A stretch of 55,755 nucleotides of DNA from the NCBI GenBank assembly GCA_029258245.1, contig JARHZK010000191.1:1-55755 (forward strand), written 5' to 3'. Origin of the DNA: Longicatena sp. (GTDB taxonomy: Bacteria; Bacillota_I; Bacilli_A; Erysipelotrichales; Erysipelotrichaceae). Shown here one piece after another: positions 273-43,375 of the stretch; position 1 is the first letter of the stretch, and each line of letters opens with the position of its first letter. Under the pieces are notes generated by a model that was not told the DNA's origin, searched no databases, and was given only the letters and a program-made list of their open reading frames with translations. A program made the translations under genes and the position numbers.

Positions 273-1184
273 ATGAAAAAATTATTAATGCTAGTGATGG
301 TAACAGTAATGTTTACTGGATGTGGTTCAAAAGAATTAAAAGTAGAAACACCTAAAACAGTAAATACTGAATATGGTGAAGAATTAAACAAGGATAAATT
401 ATTTGATGTAAAAAAATCAGATGAAAAAACAAAAGTAAAAAAAGTAGAACAATTTGATAAACATAAAGTAGGAGAACAAACTATCAAAGTAACTTTTACA
501 GATGGTAAGATAGAAACAAAAAAAGAAATGAAAGTAACTGTAAAAGATACAAAAAATCCTACTATCGAATTGGATAAAAAAGAAATTAAAATCGAAGTAG
601 GAGATAAGTTAGATATTAAGAAAAACATTAAAAAGGTATCTGATCCAGTGGATGGAGAGTTGAAATACAGTGATAAGGAAATCAAAGAAAACGGATATAT
701 GATTGATGACGGAAAACTTGATTTAGATAAAGCAGGAACATATGAAGTTAAAGTCATAGCTTATGATAAAAACAAAAATAGGACAGAAAGTGTATTTAAA
801 ATTATTGTAGAAAAGAAAAAAGAAACACCAGAACAGGAAAGCTCAGAAGCAAGTGAGCCAAGCAACCAGCAAGTATCACAAAATATGAATGCAGGACAAA
901 ACAGTTATCAAGAACCAAGTAAACCAGCACCAAAACCATCTGCACCATCAAAGCCACAAGAAAAACCTAATACGTGTCGTGTTGGAGTATTACCAGCAGG
1001 AGCAGAAATAGGAAATAGTGGAATGGTATTTATGACTATGGAAGAAGCAAATGTATGGGGTAATGCAGAAATATTAAATGAAAACAGCAAATGGGCAATG
1101 GAAAATGGCTGGTGGGGATTTAGTGTTATACAATGTGCTGATGAATGTGGTGAGCCTATATTTACTGTAGATTTCTATAAATAA
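273..1184 (+). CDS. Lipoprotein with a bacterial Ig-like domain and a Pro/Ser-rich linker
   Basis: Signal peptide plus lipobox (MVTVMFTGCGS). There is a beta-rich repeat region (KNPTIELDKKEIKIEVGDKLD...GTYEVKVIAYDKNKN), a PSKPAPKPSAPSKPQEKP linker and a Cys/Trp-containing C-terminal domain of unknown function. Confidence 0.6.
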   Translation: MKKLLMLVMVTVMFTGCGSKELKVETPKTVNTEYGEELNKDKLFDVKKSDEKTKVKKVEQFDKHKVGEQTIKVTFTDGKIETKKEMKVTVKDTKNPTIELDKKEIKIEVGDKLDIKKNIKKVSDPVDGELKYSDKEIKENGYMIDDGKLDLDKAGTYEVKVIAYDKNKNRTESVFKIIVEKKKETPEQESSEASEPSNQQVSQNMNAGQNSYQEPSKPAPKPSAPSKPQEKPNTCRVGVLPAGAEIGNSGMVFMTMEEANVWGNAEILNENSKWAMENGWWGFSVIQCADECGEPIFTVDFYK

Positions 1185-26263: not shown

Positions 26264-26292
26264 TTGTAAATAAAAATGAAATAAAGTAAAAT
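26264..26292 (+). promoter_or_regulatory. Putative promoter of the riboswitch-purD-fhs unit
   Basis: TTGTAA (26264-26269), a 17-nt spacer, then TAAAAT (26287-26292). Confidence 0.45.
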
Positions 26293-26304
26293 AGAAGAGG
26301 ATAA

Positions 26305-26437
26305 CCTTGTATAGAATCTAAATTGGTAGATTCGTCTCTACCCGCTAACCGTAAATAAGCGGACTACAAGGAATCTTTTGACTAGCTTTATTTTTGTCAT
26401 GGAGATTCCTTATGGGATTTTTATGACTTTTTTATTT
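26305..26437 (+). promoter_or_regulatory. Purine riboswitch, guanine class, with terminator expression platform
   Basis: Aptamer 26305-26371. P1 is CCTTGTA/TACAAGG. P2 is GAATCTA-AATTGG-TAGATTC. J2/3 is GTCTCTACC. P3 has an ACCGTAAAT loop. A C precedes the 3' strand of P1 (GGACTACAAGG), which indicates guanine specificity. AGATTCCTT (26403-26411) can pair either with AAGGAATCT (26369-26377) or within the terminator hairpin 26396-26427, which is followed by T6ATTTT. Confidence 0.9.
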
Positions 26438-26459: not shown

Positions 26460-27692
26460 ATGAAGGTATTAGTAATTGGAAAAGGTGGAAGAGAACATGC
26501 TCTTGCACATGCGACTTACAGAAGTAATTTAGTAGATTGTGTTTATGCAGCTCCAGGAAATCCAGGAATGGCAAAATTTGCTAAATGTGTGAATATTAGT
26601 GATAGTGATGTAGATGCTTTGGTAGCTTTTGCAAAAGAAGAGAAGATTGATTTAACAATTGTTGGACCTGAAGCAAGTTTATCTTTAGGTATTGTTGATG
26701 CATTTCAAAAAGAAGGATTAAAAATATTTGGTCCAACAAAAGATGCTACACAAGTGGAATCAAGTAAGGATTTTGCAAAGAAAACTATGGCAAAATATAA
26801 TATTCCTACAGCTACATATGAAACCTTTAATACAAAAGAAGATGCTATTGCTTATGTAAAAAAACAAGGAGCACCAATTGTAATTAAAGAGGATGGATTA
26901 AAAGCTGGTAAAGGAGTAACTGTAGCTAGTACACTAGAAGAAGCTTTTGATGCGATTGAAATTGCTTTTTCAATTCCTAATAATAAAGTAGTTATTGAAG
27001 AATGTTTGTTTGGATTTGAATTCTCATTAATTTGTTTTGTTTGTGATGATGTTGTAGTTCCTATGCAAATTGCACAAGATCATAAATGCGTTTATGATGG
27101 AGATAAAGGTCCAAATACAGGAGGAATGGGTTGTTATTCACCAGTGAAGAAAATTACTCCAGAAATTATTCAAGATGCAATGCAGCACGTCATGATTCCA
27201 ATGGCAAAAGCAATGATGGAAGAAGGACATCCATTTACTGGATTTTTATATGGTGGTTTAATGTTAACAGAAAATGGAATTAAAACAATTGAATTTAATG
27301 CACGTTTTGGTGATCCAGAAGCAGAAGTTATTTTACCACGTTTACAAAGCGATTTTGTTGATGTTATCCTAAAAGTTATGAACCATGAAAACGTAGAATT
27401 GGAATGGGATTCTCAAGTAACGTTAGGGGTTGTATTAGCAAGTGAAGGATATCCTGCAAGTAGTACAAAAGGTGCAATTATTGAAGGATTAGATGATGTA
27501 GACGGATTTGTATATCATATGGGAACAAAAATGGATCAAGGTAATTTAGTTACGGATGGTGGACGTGTTTTAATTAGTGTTGCGAAAGCAAACACCCTTG
27601 AAGAAGCATATGAAAAAGCTTATACAGATGTTAAAAAGATTCAATGCGATAAATTATTCTATCGTAACGATATTGGAAAGAAAGATATGTAG
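26460..27692 (+). CDS. purD: Phosphoribosylamine--glycine ligase
   Basis: [16 protein letters not shown] start, ATP-grasp motifs, and NARFGDPE. Confidence 0.92.
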
Positions 27693-32562: not shown

Positions 32563-32613
32563 TTGTTATAATTAAAATAAGAAGATAATAAGTGAAAAAA
32601 CGAGGTGATATCT

Positions 32614-33288
32614 ATGTTAAGAATCGCTATATTAGAAAATGAAGAAAATGCGAAAAAAATAATATTTCAATTAGGAGAAATATTAAAAGAAGAAGATTGG
32701 ACATTTCATTATTTTTCTAAAATTTCAGAATTAGCAAAAGCGCAATTATCAAAAGAATATAATATTATTATTTTACAAGATAAGTTTGATACTCCACGAG
32801 TCACAGAAAGGTTTATTCATCCGTATCCAGAACGTGTGATTGTATTTACTACGTCAAAAGAAATATCATATGAGTTTTATGATTATAATCAAATTTTATA
32901 CGTTAATAGGAATTGTTTAGAAAATGAATTAAGAAATGTATATCCATGCATAAAAAGAAAAATGAAAAATGATGATGAATATTTCTTTTCTTATAATCAT
33001 ATAAGTGTTCCATTAAAAATAAAAGAAATTTATTATATTGAAAAAGAAAATAAAAATTTAATTTATCATACAAAAAAAGGAGAATTTAGAGAGCGTAAAA
33101 ATATTAGTGATGCAGAACGATATTTTGAAAAATATCAATTTTTAAGAATTCATTCCAGTTTTTTAGTAAATTTTCAATACATAACAAAATTTGAATCTGA
33201 TACTGTATATGTGAATCAAATCCAACTTCCATTCGCAAGATTACGGCGACAAGAAATTATTGATAAAGTAAGAAAATTAACAAAATAA
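32614..33288 (+). CDS. LytTR-family DNA-binding regulator with an atypical receiver-like N-terminal domain (no kinase gene adjacent)
   Basis: C-terminal LytTR domain (ISVPLKIKEIYYIEKENKNLIYHTKKGEF...FLRIHSSFLVNFQYI). The N-terminus reads MLRIAILENEEN where canonical receivers carry the acidic DD pair. Confidence 0.75.
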   Translation: MLRIAILENEENAKKIIFQLGEILKEEDWTFHYFSKISELAKAQLSKEYNIIILQDKFDTPRVTERFIHPYPERVIVFTTSKEISYEFYDYNQILYVNRNCLENELRNVYPCIKRKMKNDDEYFFSYNHISVPLKIKEIYYIEKENKNLIYHTKKGEFRERKNISDAERYFEKYQFLRIHSSFLVNFQYITKFESDTVYVNQIQLPFARLRRQEIIDKVRKLTK

Positions 33289-33335
33289 AAGAAATTACCA
33301 AGTTTTCCATAAAGAGGTTAAAAATGCCACTTTCA

Positions 33336-33363
33336 TTTACAAAGATACATAAAAACATATAAT
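33336..33363 (+). promoter_or_regulatory. Putative sigma-A promoter of the large ncRNA candidate
   Basis: TTTACA (33336-33341), a 16-nt spacer, then TATAAT (33358-33363). Confidence 0.5.
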
Positions 33364-33369
33364 AAAAGT

Positions 33370-33967
33370 GTAAAGAAAAGAAAGAGTAACAAAAAGAGAG
33401 CGGTGAGAAAATGGGAAGTTTAATTCGTTGATAAATTGAAGCATAACTGAATCGATGCGTGAAAGGGTATCTTGTAGAGGTACTTATCGAAAAGGAAATA
33501 TGATATCAATTTATTAACATTTCGAAAATACGGTGTGGATCATCGGAATTTAAAGCCTGAAGAAAATTTGGTGAAAGCAAAACAGGTATCAGGAAAAGAA
33601 AGTAGCGATACTTTCAGTTGCAGGGATGCAAATAAACTCTATAGTATTGTTCCATTAATATATAAGTAGAATAGGAACTTATATATTGCTTGAAGAGATT
33701 CAAGCATTCTATAATAAATAGATTGAATTTGAAACATAGGTATGTGAAATAAGGATGAAAACTATCTAAATGTATAATTATTGTGAAAGAAAGTCCTATG
33801 TGGAGAAGGTGAAACAAATACGTAGCGATATGGATGTATTGTAATCTAGCATGAGTTACGAAAGAAAAAGATGAAGCTATATACAAAGACAGGAAAATAT
33901 CGTGATGAAATAAAATTTAATAGGAAAGTCTTCTATACAACTGAATTGAGATAGAAGACTTTTTTTA
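33370..33967 (+). ncRNA. Candidate large (about 600 nt) non-coding RNA, family not recognised
   Basis: ORF-free on the plus strand. Strong purine and G>C asymmetry. There are GNRA-capped hairpins at 33618-33631 (GGGA loop) and 33687-33706 (GAGA loop), two hairpins with an identical GUGAAAG loop core, repeated GTGAAA and GTAGCGATA words, and its own promoter and terminator. Confidence 0.5.
33926..33967 (+). terminator. Strong intrinsic terminator ending the ncRNA candidate
   Basis: AAGTCTTCTAT-(14 nt)-ATAGAAGACTT 11-bp perfect stem followed by T7. Confidence 0.85.
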
Positions 33968-34108
33968 TTTTAATTTTACATCTTTTTAATGGAACAAATA
34001 TTACAAATCATAGGAAACAGAAAAACCAATAAATAAAGACAAAAAAATGAATAAAAGGTTTAGTTCAATGGGCAATTTTGTTATAATAATAAATACTGGA
34101 GGGATAGT

Positions 34109-34819
34109 ATGTCCAAAATATTTCATAAAGTAGATTTTTACCAAACCGTAAAAGAGTATGGGGTTATTCTAAATGAAACCCAACTTATACAATTTGAAAA
34201 GTATGCTAAAATGTTAGTTGAGTGGAATGAAAGGATGAATCTAACTGCAATTACCGATATCGATGAAATCTATGAAAAGCATTTTTTAGATTCAATTTTA
34301 CCCTCCTTTGATGTAGAATTAAAAGGCAGTTTTTGTGATGTGGGAGCAGGAGCTGGTTTTCCTAGTATTCCATTAAAAATAGTGTATCCTGATTTGAAAG
34401 TGACAATTGTGGAAACATTAGGAAAGAGGGTTACGTTCCTAAATGCACTTTGTAAAGAGTTAGGATTAGAAGATGTTGATTGTGTACATGCAAGAGCAGA
34501 GGACTATGCAAAAGATCATCGCGAAAGTTTTGATATTGTAAGTGCAAGAGCAGTTGCAAATTTACCAATGCTTTCAGAGTTATGTATTCCACTTGTTAAA
34601 CAAGGAGGAATGTTTTTAGCGTTAAAAGGGGCAAATGCACTAGAAGAATATCAGTTAGCTGAAAAAGCAATACATATATTAGGGTGTGAAAAAAAACAAA
34701 TGGATGAAAAAATATTAAGTGATGGTTCAAAACGAATAAATTTTGTATTTCAAAAAATAAAACCAACACCTAAAAAATATCCACGAGCATTTGCTAAAAT
34801 TAAAAAGAATCCCCTTTAA
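34109..34819 (+). CDS. rsmG: 16S rRNA (guanine527-N7)-methyltransferase
   Basis: EWNERMNLTAITD, FCDVGAGAGFPSIPLKI SAM motif, SARAVA. It sits in the conserved position before noc/soj/spo0J. Confidence 0.9.
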   Translation: MSKIFHKVDFYQTVKEYGVILNETQLIQFEKYAKMLVEWNERMNLTAITDIDEIYEKHFLDSILPSFDVELKGSFCDVGAGAGFPSIPLKIVYPDLKVTIVETLGKRVTFLNALCKELGLEDVDCVHARAEDYAKDHRESFDIVSARAVANLPMLSELCIPLVKQGGMFLALKGANALEEYQLAEKAIHILGCEKKQMDEKILSDGSKRINFVFQKIKPTPKKYPRAFAKIKKNPL

Positions 34820-34830
34820 GGAGGAAGAAA

Positions 34831-35595
34831 ATGAAAGAAACTAAAATAATTGCAATTGATTTGATTGAACCAAATCCTTATCAACCTCGTTTAGAATTTG
34901 ATAATGATGCGTTGATGGATTTGGCACAATCAATTCGTGAAAATGGGTTAATACAACCAATTACTGTAAGAGAAATAAATGGGAAATATCAAATCATTGC
35001 AGGAGAAAGAAGATTTCGTGCAATGCGTTTAAATGGTGCAGTTGAAGTTCCAGTAAATATAATGGATGCTAATGAAGTTCAAATGGCCGAACTTGCACTT
35101 GTAGAAAATATTCAAAGAGAGAATTTAAGTGCAATTGAAGAAGCAAAATCCTATTTAGAAATAATGAAATATACAGGATTAAATCAATCGCAGCTTGCTT
35201 TGCGTGTTGGAAAGTCACAAAGCTCGATTGCTAATAAAATTCGTTTATTAAATTTAAATGAGGAAATACAAGATGCAGTAAATATGCATCGTATTAGTGA
35301 ACGACATGCAAGAGCTTTGCTTGGATTAGATGAAGAAAAGCAAAAAAGTGTATTAAAGAAAATTGAGAAAAAAGGCCTTACTGTTGCGCAAACAGAGAAA
35401 ATGTTAAAAGAGATGGAAAAAGGTCCAAAAAATAAGAAAAAAGTGATGCTGAAAGGAATCAGTAAAAATATTCGTATTGCAATTAATACCCTACATCAAG
35501 CAGTTAACATGGTAAATAGGGCAGGTTGTGAAGCGACAATGCAGGAAGAAGAACGCGAGGATGAAGTAGTGATCACTGTTCGTATTCCTAAATAG
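34831..35595 (+). CDS. noc: Nucleoid occlusion protein (ParB-family paralog)
   Basis: IEPNPYQPR, IIAGERRFRA and LVENIQRENL ParB boxes. It is located between rsmG and soj, as noc is in Bacilli. Confidence 0.75.
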   Translation: MKETKIIAIDLIEPNPYQPRLEFDNDALMDLAQSIRENGLIQPITVREINGKYQIIAGERRFRAMRLNGAVEVPVNIMDANEVQMAELALVENIQRENLSAIEEAKSYLEIMKYTGLNQSQLALRVGKSQSSIANKIRLLNLNEEIQDAVNMHRISERHARALLGLDEEKQKSVLKKIEKKGLTVAQTEKMLKEMEKGPKNKKKVMLKGISKNIRIAINTLHQAVNMVNRAGCEATMQEEEREDEVVITVRIPK

Positions 35596-35611
35596 AAAGG
35601 GTTGATTACAT

Positions 35612-36391
35612 ATGGGAAAAATTATTGCTATATCAAATCAAAAAGGTGGAGTAGGGAAAACGACAACATCTATTAACTTAGCAGCTGGATTAGGTTATTT
35701 AGGGAATAAAGTATTATTGGTAGATTTTGACCCACAAGGGAATGCAACACAAGGTGTTGGTGCTGGTGTAGGGGAAGATAAACTTTCTGTTTATAATTTA
35801 ATTATGGAAGATTATGAAGTTAGCGATATTCGCAAACAATTGAGTGCTCCACCAATGGATATTGTTCCGGCTAATATTTCATTAGCTGGTGCTGATTTAC
35901 AGATGGTAAAGTTTGAAGTTGGGAAAGAAGAGTTACTAAAGAAAAAATTAGATAAAGTAAAAGATGAATATGATTTTATTATTATAGATTGTCCACCTTC
36001 ATTAGGATTATTAAATACCAATGCATTAACAGCTGCAGACTCTGTAATTATACCTGTTCAATGTGAATACTATGCATTAGAAGGAGTTACACAATTATTG
36101 CTGACTATTCGTTTAGTCCAACAATTATTTAATAGAAATTTAATGATTGAAGGTGTCATTTTAACAATGTATGATGCACGTACAAAATTAAGTGTTGAGG
36201 TTCAGCAAGAAGTTCGTCAGCATTTTAAAGACCGTGTATATAAAACTTATATCCCTAGAAATGTTAAGTTAAGTGAAGCTCCTTCTAGAGGCAAGTCGAT
36301 TTTTGAGTACGATGTACGTTGTGAGGGTGCAAAAGCTTATGCTGGATTAGCAAATGAAGTTGTAAAAATGAATAAAAAATCAAAATTATGA
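35612..36391 (+). CDS. soj: Chromosome partitioning ATPase ParA/Soj
   Basis: Deviant Walker A NQKGGVGKTTT, VDFDPQGNAT, IIIDCPPSLG. Confidence 0.92.
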   Translation: MGKIIAISNQKGGVGKTTTSINLAAGLGYLGNKVLLVDFDPQGNATQGVGAGVGEDKLSVYNLIMEDYEVSDIRKQLSAPPMDIVPANISLAGADLQMVKFEVGKEELLKKKLDKVKDEYDFIIIDCPPSLGLLNTNALTAADSVIIPVQCEYYALEGVTQLLLTIRLVQQLFNRNLMIEGVILTMYDARTKLSVEVQQEVRQHFKDRVYKTYIPRNVKLSEAPSRGKSIFEYDVRCEGAKAYAGLANEVVKMNKKSKL

Positions 36392-36406
36392 TAGGAGGTA
36401 AAGGAT

Positions 36407-37294
36407 ATGACAAAAAACGATAATAGTTCTAGATTAGGAAAAGGACTATCTGCTATCTTTGGAGAAGATGTGAGTAATGTACTAGAAGATATTCAACAAG
36501 GTAAAACAGAAGTACATGAAGATAGTAAATTTGAAGTTCCTGTAAATGAAGTTAAACCAAATCCTTATCAACCTAGAAAACAATTTAATGATGATAAAAT
36601 TCATGAACTTGCGGATTCAATCAAATTACACGGTGTATTTACCCCTATTTTAGTAAAGAAGGCAGTTAAAGGATATGAATTAATTGCAGGGGAAAGAAGA
36701 CTTCGTGCTAGTAAAATTGCAGGATTAGAAACAATTCCAGCAATATTAATGGAATTTGATGATCAGCAAATGATGGAAATTGCACTATTAGAAAATATTC
36801 AACGTGAAGATTTGAATGCGATTGAAGAGGCACAAGGATATGAAAAATTAATAAAAAAATTAGGTTATACACAAGAAGAATTAGCAAAGCGTATCGGGAA
36901 ATCACGTGAACATGTTGCCAATATGTTACGTTTGTTAAAACTTCCAAAAACAGTTCAACAATATGTTGTTGATGGATTATTAAGCATGGGTCATGTTCGT
37001 GCATTATTATCATTAAAAGATGATGCATTAATGGAAGATATTGCGAAAAAAGCAATTGATTCACATTTATCTGTTCGTGCAGTTGAAGCATTAGTAAAAA
37101 ATATGAATGAACCACATGAAGAAAATGAAAAGAAAGAACGAGACATAAATTTAGATCAAGTGGAACAAAGATTACAAAGTCGTTTTGGAACAAAAGTTAA
37201 AGTTAGTGATAAACAAATTGTAATCAAATACCATGGCAATGAAGATTTAAATCGTTTATTAGAAATGATTGGTGGATTGGAAGAAGAAGCTTAA
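36407..37294 (+). CDS. spo0J: Chromosome partitioning protein ParB/Spo0J
   Basis: LGKGLSAIFGE, VKPNPYQPRKQF, LIAGERRLRA, LLENIQREDL, and the HTH segment GKSREHVANMLRLLKLP. Confidence 0.92.
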   Translation: MTKNDNSSRLGKGLSAIFGEDVSNVLEDIQQGKTEVHEDSKFEVPVNEVKPNPYQPRKQFNDDKIHELADSIKLHGVFTPILVKKAVKGYELIAGERRLRASKIAGLETIPAILMEFDDQQMMEIALLENIQREDLNAIEEAQGYEKLIKKLGYTQEELAKRIGKSREHVANMLRLLKLPKTVQQYVVDGLLSMGHVRALLSLKDDALMEDIAKKAIDSHLSVRAVEALVKNMNEPHEENEKKERDINLDQVEQRLQSRFGTKVKVSDKQIVIKYHGNEDLNRLLEMIGGLEEEA

Positions 37295-42517: not shown

Positions 42518-43375
42518 ATGGGTATAGTAGTATATGGTAGCGAAATTGCTAAAAAAATTAAACTAGAAATGATAGAAAAGGTTAAAAACTTAAAAGATAA
42601 TGGAAAGAGATTACCTAAACTAGTTGTTGTTTTAGTAGGAGAAAATCCTGCAAGTATTTCTTATGTTAAAGGAAAAGAAAAAGCGTGTACTGAAATAGGA
42701 ATGGAAAATGAATTAATTAAACTTCCAGAAACAATTTCACAAGAAGAATTATTAGAGGTTGTGAAAACTTTAAATAAGGATGATGAGGTTGATGGAATTT
42801 TAGTCCAATTACCTTTACCAAAGCAAATCGATGAACATGCTATTTTACATGCAATTGATCCATCGAAAGATGTAGATGGATTTCATCCACATAGTCTAGG
42901 TAAATTAATGTTACAAGAAGAAACTTTTATTTCATGTACTCCAAAGGGTATTATACGTATATTAGAAGAAATAGGAATGAAAGATTTGAGTGGAAAACAT
43001 GCAGTTGTTATTGGAAGAAGTAATATTGTTGGAAGACCGCTTGTGCAATTGTTAATTAATCATAATGCCACAGTTACGGTGTGTCATTCAAAAACAGAAA
43101 ATATTGAGAGTATCGCATCCCAAGCGGATATATTAATCGTATCTGTTGGCAAGCCACGATTAGTTAATCATAATTGGGTAAAAGATGGAGCCGTTGTAAT
43201 TGATGTTGGAATTAATCGTGATGAAAATAATAAACTTTGTGGCGATGTTGATTTTGATGATGTTGTTGATAAAGTAAGTTATATTACACCTGTACCAAAA
43301 GGAGTAGGCCCTATGACAATTACGATGTTGTTAGAAAATACAATTCATTCTTATAATATAAGAGAAAATAAATAG
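42518..43375 (+). CDS. folD: Bifunctional methylenetetrahydrofolate dehydrogenase/cyclohydrolase
   Basis: PKLVVVLVGENPASISYVKGKEKA, DGILVQLPLP, KDVDGFHP, VIGRSNIVGRPL, and PVPKGVGPMTI. Confidence 0.93.
   Translation: MGIVVYGSEIAKKIKLEMIEKVKNLKDNGKRLPKLVVVLVGENPASISYVKGKEKACTEIGMENELIKLPETISQEELLEVVKTLNKDDEVDGILVQLPLPKQIDEHAILHAIDPSKDVDGFHPHSLGKLMLQEETFISCTPKGIIRILEEIGMKDLSGKHAVVIGRSNIVGRPLVQLLINHNATVTVCHSKTENIESIASQADILIVSVGKPRLVNHNWVKDGAVVIDVGINRDENNKLCGDVDFDDVVDKVSYITPVPKGVGPMTITMLLENTIHSYNIRENK

Follow-up and report, generated by a model that had tools for sequence, protein, structure and literature searches.

A probable structured RNA gene of about 600 nucleotides downstream of a LytTR regulator gene in Longicatena and related Erysipelotrichaceae

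What occupies the gap that separates a gene for a LytTR-domain regulator from rsmG in Longicatena sp.? The gap lies in a stretch of 55,755 nucleotides (nt) of contig JARHZK010000191.1 (assembly GCA_029258245.1), referred to here, at its full length, as the window. A gap of 820 bp at this place had been pointed out in an earlier note on the same DNA, and the gene calls reproduce it (Table 1). The note went on to propose that the gap gives rise to a plus-strand structured RNA of about 600 nt, a proposal that is borne out by conservation, by compensatory changes and by a terminator found at the equivalent position in relatives; the gap is very probably a genuine structured RNA gene. As to its role, the balance tips modestly towards a stand-alone RNA of about 600 nt which would be controlled by the LytTR protein encoded next to it and would serve as the trans-acting output of that regulator.

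Relatives of the gap were sought at rsmG loci of reference genomes, in metagenomes and in public assemblies. When the gap was compared by blastn with 64 rsmG loci from reference genomes, homologs were found in six, one of which (L001; related loci are given by such numbers) matches at 82% over 625 nt, the five further species matching at 68-75% over the first 200-280 nt. All six matches sit just downstream of a LytTR homolog, and what stands between the match and rsmG differs among them, being a convergent MATE gene in L005 and an open reading frame (ORF) of 213 amino acids (aa) in L062. A metagenome scan, for which the query was the invariant 21-nt block of the first alignment, returned 44 loci, including four GC-rich chance matches and one locus, L095, that carries the 5' block alone. 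More copies of the RNA were found in public assemblies about 100 nt downstream of LytTR proteins at 42-47% identity. About 20 non-redundant versions, each less than 96% identical to the others, are present in genomes and gut metagenomes, the carrier at L016, in NZ_DS483474, being Amedibacillus dolichus DSM 3991, and the length of the family ranges from about 570 to 950 nt across relatives. A covariance model built on 250 positions of the 5' domain finds one copy in the window.

None of these sequences belongs to a described family. In a cmscan with all 4227 models of Rfam 15, nothing reached the gathering score in 33200-34150 and the only match in the window was a purine riboswitch; at E values up to 10 the same interval gave two noise matches only, LPR10 and PYLIS_3, at 13-16 bits, and the RNA of seven related loci gave zero Rfam matches at E up to 0.1. 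The earlier note could not match the gap to OLE, ROOL, GOLLD or raiA, and the scan agrees, these models being unmatched insofar as Rfam 15 holds them. Rfam gave no homology to RNAIII, FasX or VR-RNA either, as far as Rfam 15 has models for them. A full-text literature search that included the motif sequence found no description of the RNA, and viral contigs scanned for the 5' module gave zero matches. Since all homology tests were negative, the RNA is not a member of these LytTR-linked or large-RNA families: it is a new family in a familiar regulatory arrangement.

The 5' domain, of about 250 nt, comprises eight helices (P1-P8), which were proposed from inspection of the alignment and then tested (Table 1). 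The long-range helix P1 encloses P2, a purine-rich junction and P3 (33427-33518), and the loop of P3, TTGTAGA at 33472-78, is conserved with the consensus UUGUAKA. Helix P4 hardly varies, distant copies reading CGGTT/GCCG and CGGTC/GTCG, and one pair of P5, the helix that encloses P6, changes from G-C to A-U in 11 sequences. Hairpins P7 and P8 recur with other sequences, P7 as GATATAA[GTGA]TTATATC and as CCATAGAA[GTGA]TTCTATGG, and P8 as CTAG/CTAG, TTGTA/TACAA and CTATA/TATAG. Two of the hairpins singled out in the earlier note, TTTG-GTGAAAG-CAAA and TTGCA-GGGA-TGCAA, are P6 and P8 and show compensatory changes. A third, TGCTTGAA-GAGA-TTCAAGCA, has positional equivalents with other sequences in L098 and L102 but carries two mismatches in L001, and a fourth, GATGC-GTGAAAGG-GTATC, is not part of the conserved fold, as covariation puts its arms in P2 and P3. 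A copy at L066 (about 856-1105, minus strand), otherwise 99% identical to copy 2 of L106, has gained about 40 nt between P7 and P8, in which the junction sequence of these two hairpins, TATATCAACTGG, is repeated.

The pairing scheme was assessed in two alignments, with controls in which the 3' partners of the helices were slid. In a structure-blind MAFFT alignment (A3), 84.9% of cells pair versus 35-48% in the slid controls, 20 pairs change on both sides versus 8-14, and the covariation score is 0.245 versus 0.07-0.09; from a structure-blind MAFFT alignment, RNAalifold predicts P3, P4 and P5 and a portion of P7 unaided. In the model-fitted alignment (67 matches, 39 of them distinct), 92% of cells pair versus 79% after shuffling and 32-51% after sliding, two-sided changes are seen in 33 of 47 pairs versus 9-16 slid, and the score is 0.219 versus 0.03-0.05. 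The structure-blind result is the more conservative of the two, because the model-fitted alignment leans towards the structure. Folding of the single sequence gives a minimum free energy (MFE) of -122 kcal/mol (z = -4.5 versus shuffles) and returns P1-P8, the 3' helix, the terminator and two additional hairpins. Moreover, P3 and P4 contain conserved G-U pairs that would be A-C mismatches on the other strand, so the functional strand is the plus strand.

Beyond the 5' domain the picture is more uneven. The middle third is conserved within sub-clades only; its proposed closure and hairpins (33659-85 and 33687-706) come from RNAalifold on five sequences and from the single-sequence MFE, and support for pairing is weaker here because compensatory changes are few. 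The 3' domain was assessed with RNAalifold only. Its helix P10 is conserved across sub-clades, with a U-A pair replaced by C-G in 4 of 15 sequences, and the order of elements in relatives is GATGTATTGYAAT, a variable hairpin, ATRCAAAGACAT and ATACAATTRAATAG, with the terminator next. It is speculation that the single-stranded block before the terminator acts as a pairing seed or as a partner of the P3 loop. A pseudoknot that would join the P3 loop (UUGUA) to the 3' block AUACAAUU was considered and dropped, both segments being invariant, so that there is no covariation to judge by.

Constraint can also be read from the comparison of the window with L001, in which the 5' domain is 88% identical, the middle domain 78% and the 3' domain 79%, next to 86% for the LytTR gene, 86.5% for rsmG and 67% for the promoter region. 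From the terminator to rsmG, identity in the spacer falls to 60%, with 44 gapped columns. Evolution in the manner of neutral spacer, which the earlier note had named as an outcome that would speak against an RNA, is thus not what is seen, the RNA domains standing at 78-88% versus 60% for true spacer. From these figures, and from the 3' domain and terminator shared across sub-clades, the whole predicted transcript, and not its first 250 nt alone, is a constrained unit.

Table 1. Positions in the window of the predicted RNA, of its structural and regulatory elements and of the adjoining genes.
Feature	Position	Strand	Description
Predicted transcript, structured noncoding RNA	33369-33967	+	about 600 nt; bounded by promoter and terminator
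Direct repeats	33297-33309; 33317-33329	+	ACCAAGTTTTCCA; GTTAAAAATGCCA; candidate LytTR binding sites
Sigma-70-type promoter	33336-33363	+	TTTACA (33336-41), 16 nt, TATAAT (33358-63); 11/12 consensus positions
Invariant 5' module	33396-33416	+	GAGAGCGGTGAGAAAATGGGA / GAGAGCGGTGAGAARATGGGA; Shine-Dalgarno-like GGTGA, 4 nt, AUG GGA
Mini-ORF	33411-33431	+	6 codons, MGSLIR; stop TGA inside the 5' strand of P1
Helix P1	33427-39 with 33506-18	+	GTTGATAAATTGA with TCAATTTATTAAC; long-range closing helix; compensatory changes in 7/9 pairs
Helix P2	33452-56 with 33486-90	+	TCGAT / ATCGA; compensatory changes in 3/4 pairs
Junction	33457-64	+	GCGTGAAA; conserved, unpaired
Helix P3	33465-71 with 33479-85	+	compensatory changes in 6/6 pairs
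Helix P4	33531-45	+	CGGTG [TGGAT] CATCG; 98% of cells pair, nearly invariant
Helix P5	33556-60 with 33589-93	+	CCTGA / TCAGG; encloses P6
Hairpin P6	33567-81	+	TTTG [GTGAAAG] CAAA; two-sided changes in 3/3 pairs
Hairpin P7	33598-615	+	GAAAGTA [GCGA] TACTTTC, GNRA tetraloop; two-sided changes in 6/7 pairs
Hairpin P8	33618-31	+	TTGCA [GGGA] TGCAA; two-sided changes in 3/3 modelled pairs
Variable middle domain	33632-33830	+	closed by GTATTGTTCCATT (33644-56) with GGTGAAACAAATAC (33808-21) in the sub-clade of the window
3' domain helix P10	33833-43 with 33882-91	+	GATGT-A-TTGTA with TACAA-AG-ACA; variable cap hairpin, A-rich loop
Single-stranded block	33910-33924	+	ATAAAATTTAATAGG (consensus ATACAATTRAATAG); conserved, just before the terminator (alignment A5)
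Intrinsic terminator	33926-33967	+	11-12-bp stem AAGTCTTCTAT / ATAGAAGACTT, 14-nt loop, T7
LytTR-domain regulator gene	32605-33288	+	227 aa; Pfam LytTR E = 1e-13
Gap without genes	33289-34108		820 bp; between the LytTR-domain gene and rsmG
rsmG	34109-34819		followed by noc, soj, spo0J

The boundaries of the unit are conserved, too. The promoter noticed in the earlier note is the best promoter-like site in the 2 kb scanned, and alignment of 22 promoters on their -10 elements reveals a layout shared by 20: a repeat ACCAAttaTTCCA, a second such repeat, about 6 nt, TTTACA, 16-17 nt, TATAAT and then a conserved AAAGGTGTAAA, with -35 and -10 elements near-invariant. Core-to-core spacing of the two repeats is 20 nt in the window and L001 and, for most relatives, 21 nt, and about 6 nt separate the end of the second repeat from the -35 element. 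The exceptions are copy 1 of L062, with degenerate repeats and TTTGCA, and L095, which has no such promoter; single-base variants are TAAAAT in copy 1 of L106 and, as -35 elements in two others, TTTACT and TTTACG. In the whole window the repeat-promoter arrangement occurs once. The sole other place with two TTCCA cores 21 nt apart (42991-43016, minus strand) is probably due to chance, since no -35-like element follows. Repeats recognized by LytTR regulators have been described with a separation of 12 bp and a position 4-11 bp upstream of the -35 element (PMC6193735), and AgrA dimers bind repeats upstream of the P2 and P3 promoters (PMC4227749). The layout at the RNA promoter agrees with the one documented for LytTR regulators.

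At the other end, the terminator that the earlier note described, with an 11-bp stem and T7, is present; it had escaped an automatic scan because loops of only up to 8 nt were allowed. In each relative the equivalent terminator is the first strong one, 550-910 nt past the 5' module, and it comes before any downstream gene. Its stem covaries among relatives (RNAalifold). In most loci a strong terminator lies 140-300 nt before rsmG, which has promoter-like sites of its own. Transcription would accordingly be expected to start near 33369 and to stop at this terminator.

It is the LytTR gene, and not rsmG, that the RNA tracks. A LytTR homolog precedes the motif in the same orientation in 49 of the 53 occurrences for which 900 nt or more of upstream sequence is available, the RNA lying about 100 nt downstream of it, and the covariance model found no RNA at rsmG loci without a LytTR gene. 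The suggestion, held in reserve by the earlier note, of a regulatory RNA tied to the LytTR protein is favored by this strict synteny and by the conserved repeats upstream of the -35 element. One locus stands apart: L102 (1-1010) has a full-length RNA with normal promoter repeats and, upstream, a 331-aa ORF instead of a LytTR gene, and is the sole full-length copy with enough upstream sequence and no LytTR gene there.

The regulator itself is unusual. Pfam recognizes only its C-terminal LytTR domain, and a sequence search of the PDB gave a weak match for the LytTR domain and none for the N-terminal half. In an alignment of 12 homologs (A6), the N-terminal half has a receiver-like alternating pattern in which, by eye, the phospho-acceptor position is mostly Glu instead of Asp and E7/E9 form the acidic pocket. 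No kinase gene was found at any examined locus, and the gene in front of the regulator gene is often murA or one of the YdjC family. The partner of the RNA is probably an orphan, phosphorylation-independent regulator with an atypical receiver-like N-terminus.

From these observations a simple chain of events can be proposed, in which the LytTR protein would bind the paired repeats and control the RNA, and the RNA would be the main output of the regulator, acting in trans as RNAIII, FasX and VR-RNA do. Several points weigh against this proposal. A LytTR homolog at 39% identity (L111) comes without the RNA, and the family is narrow, confined to few Erysipelotrichaceae genera, so that part of the sequence invariance reflects relatedness. 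The promoter matches 11 of 12 consensus positions with a spacer of 16-17 nt and might fire unaided, being near-consensus and unlike the poorly spaced AgrA-dependent promoters; the RNA may be constitutive or repressed rather than activated. RNAduplex against 54 translation-start regions of the window gave energies inside the shuffled background (best value -35.1 kcal/mol versus a shuffled minimum of -37.6 kcal/mol), which speaks neither for nor against a target there. The RNA is also purine-rich and C-poor, the opposite of the C-rich anti-Shine-Dalgarno seeds of RNAIII-type regulators. Additional, partly decayed copies of the 5' domain that serve as leaders in L106 and L062 hint at a role in cis. 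Finally, the existence of the transcript, its two termini and its control by the regulator are all predicted.

Comparison with known systems shows how far the arrangement is familiar. The FasX gene lies immediately downstream of its regulator gene, and RNAIII carries a small ORF, hld. The mini-ORF of the gap RNA is not a toxin gene, given its six codons and unconserved peptide. AgrA/RNAIII, FasA/FasX and VirR/VR-RNA are cases of LytTR regulators that act through a dedicated RNA (PMC3673130). Similarly to the pair proposed here, FasA is a LytTR-family regulator that promotes a dedicated noncoding effector RNA (PMC3673130); however, FasX is a simple RNA of about 200 nt that pairs with ska mRNA, whereas the gap RNA is 3-4 times longer and multi-domain, and FasA has two cognate kinases, whereas the gap regulator has no kinase nearby and lacks the usual Asp. 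With AgrA/RNAIII and VirR/VR-RNA the locus shares paired repeats upstream of the promoter of a regulatory RNA, which in those systems is 400-500 nt long (PMC4227749, PMC3673130). It departs from RNAIII in composition, since the C-rich loops of RNAIII pair with Shine-Dalgarno regions and the gap RNA is C-poor (49 C in 540 nt), and from AgrA-dependent promoters in its near-consensus spacing, theirs being suboptimal at 18-20 nt (PMC4227749). The differences from the LytTR-linked riboregulators are thus five: size and complexity, composition, promoter, the atypical orphan regulator and a mini-ORF joined to P1.

The size and elaboration of the RNA invite a different interpretation, and this is the main rival, albeit a doubtful one: a large architectural or ribonucleoprotein RNA comparable in kind to OLE, ROOL or GOLLD, acting as a catalyst, as a scaffold or as a self-assembling particle, for which the LytTR gene would set the timing or be a mere neighbor. 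With OLE, ROOL, GOLLD and raiA the gap RNA has in common a length of about 600-900 nt, many covarying helices, GNRA-type loops and occurrence in Firmicutes. Its 570-950 nt with at least ten conserved helices, the GNRA-type loops of P7 and P8 and the purine-rich junctions such as GCGTGAAA exceed what a base-pairing riboregulator usually needs, and the near-consensus promoter suggests high expression. ROOL, GOLLD and OLE form RNA-only assemblies, ornate complexes when seen by cryo-electron microscopy (PMC12286853). Unlike these RNAs, however, the gap RNA has a specific regulator as partner and a 5' ribosome-binding module, and shows no Rfam homology to OLE, ROOL or GOLLD. Apart from the LytTR regulator there is no conserved protein-partner gene, the middle third is poorly conserved between sub-clades, and the phylogenetic range is very narrow. 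The earlier note had already remarked that the OLE-associated oapA context is missing, and none of the proteins that go with OLE, whose genes are oapA, oapB and oapC, is found among the ten flanking products scanned; as the window has no tRNA gene either, neither of the usual contexts of those large RNAs is present.

A further element of the RNA is the 5' module with its mini-ORF. The module is identical throughout the family except for A/G at one position and the change from GGA to GGC in L109 and L110, first copies of the L108 type having a further G-to-A change (GGTGAAAAG), and it persists even at loci where identity of the LytTR protein drops to 42%. Of 19 distinct structured copies, 17 have a mini-ORF of exactly six codons. 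In L098 a 1-nt insertion is accompanied by a new in-frame stop one codon earlier, and in the degenerate duplicate of L106 the stop follows after two codons. The stop codon, be it TAG, TGA or TAA, always occupies positions 3-5 of the 5' strand of P1, where it covaries and never turns into a sense codon. This constitutes moderate evidence, drawn from comparison of the copies, that a ribosome would initiate and terminate at the mini-ORF.

How such a module might work is suggested by Bacillus, in which 5'-proximal ribosome-binding sites such as STAB-SD of cryIIIA and the ermC leader stabilize transcripts. Similarly to STAB-SD, the gap RNA has a Shine-Dalgarno-like element about 30 nt from its predicted 5' end that is reused on several transcripts; unlike STAB-SD it adds an AUG and a very short ORF, and an invariant block of 21 nt exceeds what a Shine-Dalgarno sequence needs. 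The Shine-Dalgarno and AUG module would most likely load a ribosome at the 5' end, and the loaded ribosome could guard the RNA from 5'-end-dependent decay as the Bacillus sites do. In addition, because the mini-ORF ends within P1, a translating ribosome could open the 5' domain for a short time. A bolder version, tentative and rather improbable, holds that this is a large RNA built to engage the ribosome, each round of translation of the mini-ORF remodeling the 5' domain. Were this true, the RNA would report or exploit the translational status of the cell, or be a ribosome-associated or self-assembling particle, and would not be a base-pairing riboregulator of the classical sort, and the module on the L108 and L095 transcripts would mark a small regulon.

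Copies of the module away from the stand-alone RNA bear on its use. In loci of the L108 type (L108 4543-5282, and likewise L076, L079, L080, L083, L086, L088 and L101), behind a promoter with LytTR-type repeats upstream, the module starts a 36-codon ORF (MGKLAVNYNGVSSAQFVSIDVKSTYWPGSGSIQMVL) that overlaps the gene of a 205-aa single-pass membrane protein through ATGA, and the structured domain is absent. A frameshift fuses the 36-codon and 205-aa ORFs in L074. At L095 (2940-3080, minus strand), which comes from the same sample as L065, a 30-nt module identical to that of L005 is followed by a 7-codon ORF and then by a 223-aa secreted protein, in an unrelated context and with a different promoter; the neighbors there resemble BlaI and BlaR1 by eye. 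The L095 case suggests that, within one genome, several transcripts bear the module. In L106 and L062, a second, increasingly degenerate copy of promoter and 5' domain forms the leader of secreted or membrane protein genes and scores 140 and 100 bits, respectively, versus 200-260 for stand-alone copies. Pfam gave no significant match for the 205-aa, 36-aa, 107-aa and 223-aa proteins near the extra copies. Promoter and 5' module thus seem to form a portable unit of expression, and the structured body appears specific to the stand-alone RNA.

The same copies are among the arguments for a cis-acting 5' leader, either a mini-ORF attenuator or a sensor of a ligand or protein, that would serve rsmG or a lost gene. 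A conserved Shine-Dalgarno sequence, AUG and in-frame stop within P1 are what an attenuator would have, the 5'-domain copies of L106 and L062 stand upstream of secreted or membrane protein genes, and the L108 module directly starts the 36-codon ORF that overlaps the 205-aa gene. Against it, the leader copies are degenerate (100-140 versus 200-260 bits), and since L108 moreover keeps the module only, the structure appears dispensable for mRNAs. The RNA goes with the LytTR gene and not with rsmG, a strong terminator ends the unit before rsmG in most loci, and the 5' domain is separated from that terminator by a conserved 3' domain. The downstream gene is inconsistent, being rsmG, the convergent MATE gene of L005 or lipoprotein genes. 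Because terminator and 3' domain intervene and the downstream gene varies or is convergent, a cis role of the stand-alone copies is unlikely.

Less likely still is an mRNA for a small protein, be it the 6-residue peptide or one from some other short ORF, with the structure secondary. The invariance of the ribosome-binding module, the constancy of the six codons and the synonymous nature of the GGA to GGC change in L109 and L110 would suit it, but past Met-Gly the peptide is unconserved (SLIR, KFES, TLAS, DMNR, SFRG), and its residue 6, which is Ser, Arg or Gly, follows P1 pairing, a variation that fits constraint on just the two P1 nucleotides and not on the peptide. Other short ORFs are unconserved as well, indels in conserved blocks are not multiples of three, and about 500 nt of conserved downstream structure would be left unexplained; the pattern of the mini-ORF is not taken to indicate that the peptide itself has a function. 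A decayed protein gene or neutral spacer with chance hairpins, for which speak the AT-richness of the region and the long spurious ORFs of the pyrimidine-rich minus strand, is very improbable, and a protein remnant effectively excluded, given the compensatory changes in most modelled pairs, a 5' domain as conserved as the flanking genes, the lack of Pfam matches for the four ORFs scanned and the shifting position and extent of the minus-strand ORFs among relatives. A functional minus-strand protein was likewise rejected, as the ORF positions differ in relatives and fit the scarcity of stops on a pyrimidine-rich strand, and the G-U pairs contradict it.

As to coding potential on the plus strand, the ORFs are unconserved and without Pfam matches, but the limit of 20 codons given in the earlier note does not stand: the longest ATG ORFs of the gap have 27 and 24 codons, and one GTG ORF has 44. 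Four gap ORFs were scanned with zero Pfam matches; the plus-strand ones are unconserved, and the ATG of the 27-codon ORF is missing in L001.

If the RNA is indeed the output of the LytTR regulator, the pattern of LytTR control exerted via an RNA would reach from pathogens to gut commensals and would also cover an orphan regulator that has no kinase. Large bacterial RNAs with many conserved helices are rare, and one of them, HEARO, turned out to be a guide RNA. The gap RNA lends itself to experiment: its regulator gene adjoins it, its promoter is defined and has candidate binding sites, and cultured human-gut bacteria, namely Amedibacillus dolichus and Longicatena species, carry it. Its unusual trait is the invariant ribosome-binding module and mini-ORF joined to the closing helix.

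The composition of the gap had been one of the grounds for suspecting an RNA. A recount of 33361-33900 gives G = 117 and C = 49, exactly the figures of the earlier note, although its view that the strand asymmetry goes well beyond that of the neighborhood was overstated, neighboring plus-strand coding windows having skews of 0.33-0.43. The GC skew of 0.41 for 33361-33900 ranks among the highest 4% of 540-nt windows, and the purine content among the highest 2.4%. The word GTGAAA does occur five times (33459, 33571, 33744, 33783 and 33809), about 0.5 being expected, and 0.03% of mononucleotide shuffles reach five. The repeat GTAGCGATA is indeed found twice, but it is lineage-specific. A cluster of DnaA boxes was considered and rejected: TGTGGATCA (33534-33542) and TGTGGAGAA (33799-33807) are each one base off the consensus, and the window has no exact TTATCCACA or TGTGGATAA, the latter being the complement of the DnaA box. 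A DNA-level role for 33534-33542 is unlikely, as this site is the conserved P4 loop.

The host is a low-GC member of the Erysipelotrichaceae, the RsmG of the window being 94% identical to that of a Longicatena sp. metagenome-assembled genome, the nearest relative retrieved. Neighbors with Pfam annotation are DUF1846, MurA, LytTR, RsmG, Noc/ParB, Soj and Spo0J. The genes rsmG, noc, soj and spo0J (34109-37294) follow the usual origin-proximal order, and upstream of rsmG the place of mnmE and mnmG is taken by murA, the LytTR gene and the RNA. The purine riboswitch aptamer of the window (RF00167, 68 bits) lies at 26287-26386 on the plus strand, upstream of the ORF at 26460-27692, and a homologous purine riboswitch is carried by L085 at 196-295.

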